This document shows, in pieces, positions 10,979-12,315 of a stretch of 12,766 nucleotides of DNA. The translations under genes and the position numbers were made by a program. Under the pieces are notes generated by a model. That model saw only the letters and a program-made list of their open reading frames with translations, was not told the DNA's origin and did no database searches. This DNA is from a plasmid: the NCBI RefSeq assembly GCF_056746865.1, contig NZ_JBWKMP010000007.1; one strand, given 5' to 3'. The stretch's first letter is position 1. Every line of letters begins with the position of its first letter.

Positions 10979-11040
10979 ATGAGGAAAAGATTTTTTGTGG
11001 GAATATTAGCTATAAACCTCCTTGTTGGATGTCAGGCTAA
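10979..11040 (+). pseudogene. kil: Colicin lysis (release) lipoprotein gene, 5' part (MRKRFFVGILAINLLVGCQA...), interrupted by IS5 after codon 20
   Basis: RBS taagga; signal peptide with lipobox LVGC as in ColE1 Kil. Reading frame enters the IS5 end at 11041. Confidence 0.8.
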
Positions 11041-12235
11041 GGAAGGTGCGAACAAGTCCCTGATATGAGATCATGTTTGTCATCTGGAGCCATGGAACAG
11101 GGTTCATCATGAGTCATCAACTTACCTTCGCCGACAGTGAATTCAGCAGTAAGCGCCGTCAGACCAGAAAAGAGATTTTCTTGTCCCGCATGGAGCAGAT
11201 TCTGCCATGGCAAAACATGGTGGAAGTCATCGAGCCGTTTTACCCCAAGGCTGGTAATGGCCGGCGACCTTATCCGCTGGAAACCATGCTACGCATTCAC
11301 TGCATGCAGCATTGGTACAACCTGAGCGATGGCGCGATGGAAGATGCTCTGTACGAAATCGCCTCCATGCGTCTGTTTGCCCGGTTATCCCTGGATAGCG
11401 CCTTGCCTGACCGCACCACCATCATGAATTTCCGCCACCTGCTGGAGCAGCATCAACTGGCCCGCCAATTGTTCAAGACCATCAATCGCTGGCTGGCCGA
11501 AGCAGGCGTCATGATGACTCAAGGCACCTTGGTCGATGCCACCATCATTGAGGCACCCAGCTCGACCAAGAACAAAGAGCAGCAACGCGATCCGGAGATG
11601 CATCAGACCAAGAAAGGCAATCAATGGCACTTTGGCATGAAGGCCCACATTGGTGTCGATGCCAAGAGTGGCCTGACCCACAGCCTAGTCACCACCGCGG
11701 CCAACGAGCATGACCTCAATCAGCTGGGTAATCTGCTGCATGGAGAGGAGCAATTTGTCTCAGCCGATGCCGGCTACCAAGGGGCGCCACAGCGCGAGGA
11801 GCTGGCCGAGGTGGATGTGGACTGGCTGATCGCCGAGCGCCCCGGCAAGGTAAGAACCTTGAAACAGCATCCACGCAAGAACAAAACGGCCATCAACATC
11901 GAATACATGAAAGCCAGCATCCGGGCCAAGGTGGAGCACCCATTTCGCATCATCAAGCGACAGTTCGGCTTCGTGAAAGCCAGATACAAGGGGTTGCTGA
12001 AAAACGATAACCAACTGGCGATGTTATTCACGCTGGCCAACCTGTTTCGGGCGGACCAAATGATACGTCAGTGGGAGAGATCTCACTAAAAACTGGGGAT
12101 AACGCCTTAAATGGCGAAGAAACGGTCTAAATAGGCTGATTCAAGGCATTTACGGGAGAAAAAATCGGCTCAAACATGAAGAAATGAAATGACTGAGTCA
12201 GCCGAGAAGAATTTCCCCGCTTATTCGCACCTTCC
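11041..12235 (+). mobile_element. IS5 (1195 bp), complete, with 4-bp target site duplication CTAA (11037-11040 and 12236-12239)
   Basis: Ends ggaaggtgcgaacaag... and ...cttattcgcaccttcc are the IS5 inverted repeats from memory. CTAA is the typical IS5 target and is duplicated on both sides. Confidence 0.95.
11109..12089 (+). CDS. insH: IS5 transposase (326 aa)
   Basis: [96 protein letters not shown]... matches the IS5 transposase from memory. Confidence 0.95.
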
Positions 12236-12315
12236 CTAACTATATACGTGATGTTCAGGGAGGGACTGTGGCTCCATCATCTTCTTCTAAACTGACGGGG
12301 ATCTCTGTTCAGTAG
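12236..12315 (+). pseudogene. kil: Colicin lysis lipoprotein gene, 3' part (...[25 protein letters not shown])
   Basis: Continues the kil frame across the CTAA duplication; stop at 12313-12315. Confidence 0.8.

Follow-up and report, generated by a model that had tools for sequence, protein, structure and literature searches.

Colicin lysis proteins are small lipoproteins, the mature part of which causes quasi-lysis, the release of the colicin, and the death of the induced cells. The insertion of IS5 at CTAA is equally a matter of textbook knowledge. The lysis gene described here occupies the same place as kil of ColE1 (NC_001371), after cea and the opposite-strand imm and immediately before the RNAII/RNAI origin region, and the two genes share the 45-residue length of their products and the lipobox. 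However, the gene described here is interrupted by IS5 after nucleotide 62, and the allele differs from that of ColE1 at four residues. The inserted element itself does not differ in any respect from the IS5 of E. coli, as it has the same length of 1195 bp, the same 16-bp inverted repeats, the same ins5A DDE transposase, the same CTAA target, and the same 4-bp duplication; the site of insertion alone is particular. CTAA as the target of IS5 and the length of 981 bp for ins5A have both been reported (PMC2753651).

Colicin operons that have kept imm and lost the lysis and colicin genes have been described previously, and the loss was attributed to selection against a lethal gene (bioRxiv 10.1101/2021.05.15.444200). 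The locus described here has reached an equivalent final state, in which imm is likewise retained. However, that earlier report stresses chromosomal operons for nuclease colicins, whereas the present operon is plasmid-borne and encodes a pore-former, and each inactivating event can still be read.

The window, by which we mean the whole stretch of 12,766 nucleotides that was analyzed (12.8 kb), was found to be a complete circular plasmid of the ColE1 type, the first and last bases of which are contiguous in NZ_CP128975 (8,899 bp). It is a member of the ColE1 family with a colicin E1-type operon that is very probably in decay; IS5 has split kil, cea was already inactive, and the immunity, mobilization, and replication functions remain.

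The lysis gene and the IS5 element

The features of the interrupted gene are as follows.

10979..11040, plus strand: 5' fragment of kil, codons 1-20 and 2 nt of codon 21, encoding the signal peptide, L-V-G-C, and then Q-A; 100% identical to NZ_CP128975 and NZ_CP135675
10979..11068, plus strand: residual open reading frame of the disrupted kil, 29 aa, with IS5 supplying the 9 C-terminal residues and the stop codon
11037..11040: CTAA target duplication, left copy
11041..12235, plus strand: IS5, 1195 bp, with ins5A codirectional with kil, identified by 100% identity and Pfam domains
11041..11056: left terminal inverted repeat of IS5, GGAAGGTGCGAACAAG, matching the right repeat at 15 of 16 positions
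11109..12089, plus strand: ins5A transposase gene, 981 nt from MSHQL...; the mechanical open reading frame starts at 11073
12220..12235: right terminal inverted repeat of IS5
12236..12239: CTAA target duplication, right copy
12240..12315, plus strand: 3' fragment of kil, from the last nucleotide of codon 21 to the stop codon, with its own start codon absent

The split gene begins with the ATG at 10979-10981 and ends with a TAG stop codon at 12315. When IS5 and one copy of CTAA were deleted in silico, a continuous open reading frame of 138 nt was obtained that encodes a lipoprotein precursor of 45 aa, and when both copies of CTAA were retained the frame was broken. The exact restoration of kil asserted in the preliminary description is thereby confirmed. 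The reconstructed product was found to match the Pfam family Lysis_col (PF02402) over the full profile (109 bits, E = 7.2e-32). At the DNA level the restored gene shows 100% identity to its intact counterpart in the sister plasmids NZ_CP128975 and NZ_CP135675, and its product agrees in every residue with WP_001519492.1, which is annotated as "colicin release lysis protein" in IS-free sister plasmids of the 8.9-kb group. The comparison with ColE1 Kil, which the same description had pointed to, gave 41 of 45 amino acids and 127 of 138 nucleotides identical after excision. A lipobox, L15-V16-G17-C18, can be read from the sequence, and the mature lipopeptide would consist of residues 18-45.

The insertion spans 1195 bp (11041-12235) and is identical over its full length to many annotated IS5 copies in RefSeq E. 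coli genomes, where the copies carry the annotation "IS5-like element IS5 family transposase". The transposase reading frame is uninterrupted and contains the Pfam domains DDE_Tnp_1 (1.9e-35) and DUF772 (3.7e-21). The terminal inverted repeats of 16 bp are imperfect, with GGAAGGTGCGAACAAG at the left end and GGAAGGTGCGAATAAG at the right end. The reading frame opened by the ATG at 10979 encodes MRKRFFVGILAINLLVGCQA and meets the left end of IS5 at 11041. The left junction reads ...TGTCAGG followed by CTAA and GGAAGGTGCGAACAAG, and the right junction reads ...CTTATTCGCACCTTCC followed by CTAA and CTATATACG. The 4-bp duplication of CTAA, a site of the YTAR type, is thus present on both flanks (11037-11040 and 12236-12239) and corresponds to kil nucleotides 59-62, with the point of entry after nucleotide 62, inside codon 21. 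These results bear out the earlier assignment of an IS5 element at a CTAA target in a colicin lysis gene, in the identity of the element, in the duplication, and in the Lysis_col match. The arrangement of IS5 and kil is not a chance pattern, and the lysis gene is properly annotated as a pseudogene interrupted by IS5.

The colicin operon and its plasmid

The kil gene is the last gene of an SOS-regulated colicin operon, which consists of a promoter with a LexA operator, cea, imm on the opposite strand, and kil. The features upstream of kil, and the one replication control RNA downstream of it, are as follows.

[quoted passage not shown]
6393..7456, plus strand: 5' part of cea (colicin E1 family), with a 1-bp deletion near 7245 that leads to a stop codon at 7260-7262
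7457..10095, plus strand: IS21-family element (ISSso4-like, istA-istB), 2639 bp, with the target duplication CTTTTAT at 7450-7456 and 10096-10102
10096..10593, plus strand: 3' part of cea, which encodes the pore-forming domain and has lost 10 bp at 10472/10473
10590..10931, minus strand: colicin E1 immunity gene, intact, 113 aa, 100% identical to the copy in NZ_CP080265.1 that is annotated as WP_000058758.1
12375..12477, minus strand: RNAI, replication control RNA of the ColE1 type (Rfam RF00106, 87 bits)

The intact operon of NZ_CP135675 encodes a colicin E1-family protein of 521 aa (PDB 2i88, 2e-112; PDB 6wxh, 3e-98). Relative to this operon, four lesions were mapped in the window: the 1-bp deletion, the 2639-bp insertion, and the 10-bp deletion, all in cea, and IS5 in kil. 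The preliminary description had referred to other lesions in the operon, and the three in cea substantiate that statement. Copies of the 2639-bp element with 100% identity are found in many E. coli genomes under the annotation "IS21-like ISSso4 family", and the element contains the IstA-type Pfam domains rve and Mu-transpos_C_2 and the IstB-type domain IstB_IS21 (2.4e-60).

The two small deletions in cea were also found in the IS-free plasmids NZ_CP128975, AP026459, and NZ_CP032881, each of 8,899 bp and each with an intact kil. Since these deletions are common to IS-free relatives, cea was dead before either insertion sequence arrived. The two insertions look recent, because both elements are identical to other genomic copies and their target duplications are perfect. 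In the order of events, the small deletions in cea came first and the insertion sequences later. The same relatives indicate that kil is not purged quickly after the loss of the colicin, because the IS-free sisters with the same dead cea retain it intact. At position 6332, within the cea promoter and inside its second LexA box, the window has an A, as does the dead-colicin plasmid NZ_CP128975, and the colicin-intact NZ_CP135675 has a G.

The backbone is 99.4-100% identical to that of an 8.9-kb group of plasmids from E. coli, many of them from chickens. The rop and mbe genes were assigned by homology to relatives with 99.6-100% identity in the backbone, in which Rop, MobC, MbeB, and MbeD are annotated, and RNAI was the sole match in an Rfam scan of the whole plasmid. 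Several differences from the relatives were also observed. The reading frame of the mbeA region (1095-2717) contains an additional in-frame copy of the 21-bp tandem repeat CACTTGAGCGAGCAGACAGAA at 2533-2553 relative to NZ_CP128975 and NZ_CP135675, and the run of G residues at 3712 is one base longer than in NZ_CP128975; the stretch from about 3120 to 3690 is free of open reading frames of at least 40 aa on both strands. The segment from about 2720 to 5190 (about 2.4 kb, from mbeD to exc2) is absent from ColE1, and the relatives have no annotated genes there. It contains a fragment of an IS3-family element of about 230 bp (about 4491-4728), and in PLSDB it is at least 80% covered in only nine records. 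The larger plasmid NZ_CP080265.1 (22,976 bp) appears to be a multimer, or else a cointegrate, built from plasmids of the 8.9-kb type, with a full-length colicin annotated in one copy of the operon and none in the other.

Mobile elements in the lysis genes of other plasmids

The occurrence of interrupted lysis genes was surveyed using a query of 173 nt spanning the restored gene, with a full match defined as at least 80% of the query covered. In PLSDB, 218 records were matched, with 206 at or above this threshold and 12 below it. In the complete RefSeq E. coli genomes, 188 of the 194 matched records were full and 6 were partial. Incomplete matches thus account for about 3-5% of the copies in the two databases, where some of the partial matches were inspected. 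At least one partial match, H162, simply reaches the end of its circular record and is consistent with a gene split by the start of that record. In the following plasmids, a mobile element was found within kil.

CP099155.1: IS903-like element with a 9-bp duplication, at kil nucleotides 101-109; cea full-length
NZ_CP093924.1 (pGA_Eco4): IS91-family element, at about kil nucleotides 76-80; cea annotated and full-length
NZ_CP047382.1: Tn3-family element of about 3.8 kb, after kil nucleotide 69 (TATATA); cea full-length
NZ_OP242235.1: Tn3-family end related to that of NZ_CP047382.1 with different cargo, at the same kil nucleotide; full-length annotated cea coding sequence
NZ_JBYTPC010000005.1: Tn3-family end related to that of NZ_CP047382.1 with different cargo, at the same kil nucleotide; cea annotated as a partial fragment only

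At least four kinds of mobile elements have therefore entered the 138-bp kil gene independently, all within nucleotides 59-109. These natural alleles share with the one described here the same 138-bp gene and otherwise typical colicin E1 plasmids. The elements, the sites, and the duplications differ, and the colicin gene is full-length in three of them, whereas it carries three lesions in the window. The pairing of an interrupted kil with a full-length cea in CP099155.1, NZ_CP047382.1, and NZ_CP093924.1 indicates that the loss of kil is independent of a prior decay of the colicin. In the preliminary description, the loss of the lysis protein was seen as fitting in with the remaining operon lesions; this statement can now be refined, in that the loss of the colicin may come after the loss of kil.

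The three Tn3-family ends (GGGGTTCCGTGGG...) are joined to kil after CTATATA, at nucleotide 69 of the gene (NZ_CP047382.1, 8258-8300; NZ_OP242235.1, 4539-4580; NZ_JBYTPC010000005.1, 4071-4110). The plasmids come from China, Laos, and Malawi, and their internal sequences differ. The shared joint could be the result of one old event followed by recombination, or it could mark a true hotspot 7 bp from the site of IS5.

Consequences of the insertion and alternative readings

IS5 transposed into the CTAA at kil nucleotides 59-62, with duplication of these 4 bp, and the gene was cut after codon 20. The insertion should abolish the Kil-dependent quasi-lysis, the release of the colicin, and the SOS-induced death of the host. 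The reading frame that is left encodes 29 aa; the signal peptide, Cys18, and two further residues of the mature part are native, and the remaining nine residues come from IS5. Because 25 of the 28 mature residues are missing, this product should not lyse the host, and the allele has presumably lost both the lysis function and the lethal release step. The retention of the signal peptide and the lipobox counts against a full loss. Toxicity of the signal peptide itself has been reported for the related release protein of cloacin DF13. Expression of the 3' fragment of kil from a start within IS5 was considered and rejected, as there is no overlapping reading frame of at least 20 aa. With cea dead and kil split, the plasmid would therefore provide immunity, mobilization, and replication functions only, which places it in the class of non-producing, immunity-only ColE1 derivatives.

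Any promoter upstream of kil leads to expression of Kil by read-through, and Kil perturbs the envelope (PMC6234761), so its removal is plausibly advantageous once the colicin has become useless. We infer selection for the loss of kil. The principal alternative is that the hit was neutral, a chance landing in a host with many active IS5 copies on a gene that was already silenced or useless, with no selection against lethality. We consider this less likely. In its favor, the colicin gene was inactivated before the insertion sequences arrived, and the sister plasmids with a dead cea have kept kil. IS5 is abundant, with matches in 2873 of 5426 E. coli genomes in RefSeq and up to 43 copies in each. 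The IS-free plasmid contains 87 YTAR sites, three of them in kil, which gives a random hit a probability of a few percent. In addition, the 2.6-kb IS21-family insertion upstream may already have lowered the transcription of the gene, in which case the hit on kil would be neutral. What argues against a neutral hit is the presence of at least four types of mobile elements in kil of independent plasmids, three of which have a full-length cea; such recurrence exceeds the expectation for a gene that makes up about 1.5-2% of the length of the plasmid. Furthermore, Kil is lethal and is made by read-through even when its own promoter is absent (PMC6234761). The structural conclusion is unchanged if the hit was neutral.

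A second alternative is that IS5 also acts as a regulator, its 3' end lying in the activating orientation and raising the transcription of the RNAII primer and thereby the copy number. The features of the region that follows kil are given below.

12324..12346, plus strand: terminator-like hairpin 3' of kil, overlapping the -35 element of the putative RNAII promoter
12335-40 and 12358-63: putative RNAII promoter, -35 TTGAGA and -10 TAATCT, with +1 near 12371

The start of RNAII near 12371 is our assumption and was placed by reference to pBR322 and ColE1. The 3' end of IS5 (12235) is about 136 bp upstream of this putative +1 (about 12371) and carries an IHF site and the bent-DNA region "IB"; the ins5A promoter is distal. 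A promoter-proximal 3' end of IS5 of 177 bp activates PglpFK at -126.5, and Plac was activated 8-fold at -126.5 and 2-fold at -178.5 (PMC2753651). The orientation in the window is that found in the activation of glpFK, flhDC, and fucAO, and the distance is similar to that at glpFK (PMC2753651). However, the argument is purely positional. The activation depends on the helical phase, from which the present spacing departs by about 9 bp relative to the reported case; moreover, the RNAII promoter is already strong and constitutive, and RNAI and Rop are the main determinants of the copy number. A regulatory role of this kind is thus very improbable. A fusion promoter of the fucAO type was set aside, as it involves the 5' end of IS5 together with a Crp site upstream of it, and transcription then reads through the entire element; all that the fucAO case contributes here is that transcription does not necessarily end within IS5. 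Somewhat speculatively, and with little probability, IS5 may be retained through a change in copy number, and GCTAACTATATACG (kil nucleotides 57-70) may be a hotspot at which multiple elements disarm colicin plasmids.

That an IS5 copy was misplaced into this small plasmid during assembly is extremely improbable, because misassembly creates no target duplications; the searched collections did not contain the exact kil::IS5 junction, but the 4-bp duplication of CTAA, a canonical target of IS5, is perfect, the element joins kil exactly on both sides, and kil is restored to the base by excision. The left junction had no match in the RefSeq complete E. coli genomes, the right junction had none in PLSDB, and a 29-nt pattern of the left junction, in either orientation of IS5, had none in metagenome contigs. 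A search of the literature for IS5 or other insertion sequences in colicin lysis genes returned general background only, in which this allele was not described. Since the junction was not found in these collections, kil::IS5 is possibly an allele that had not been deposited previously. The components are all known, as IS5 and the kil allele are each 100% identical to database entries, and the insertion is not new in kind.

The reading that we prefer is the transposition of IS5 into kil of an operon whose colicin gene was already inactive, presumably with selection for the loss of the lysis gene. The value of the plasmid is modest, and lies in its being a fully readable case of the stepwise decay of a colicin operon with imm untouched. 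The only point that is mildly notable is that kil has been hit by mobile elements repeatedly in natural plasmids. Taken together, the kil alleles interrupted by mobile elements support the suicidal lysis gene as a recurrent target of inactivation in natural plasmids of E. coli.
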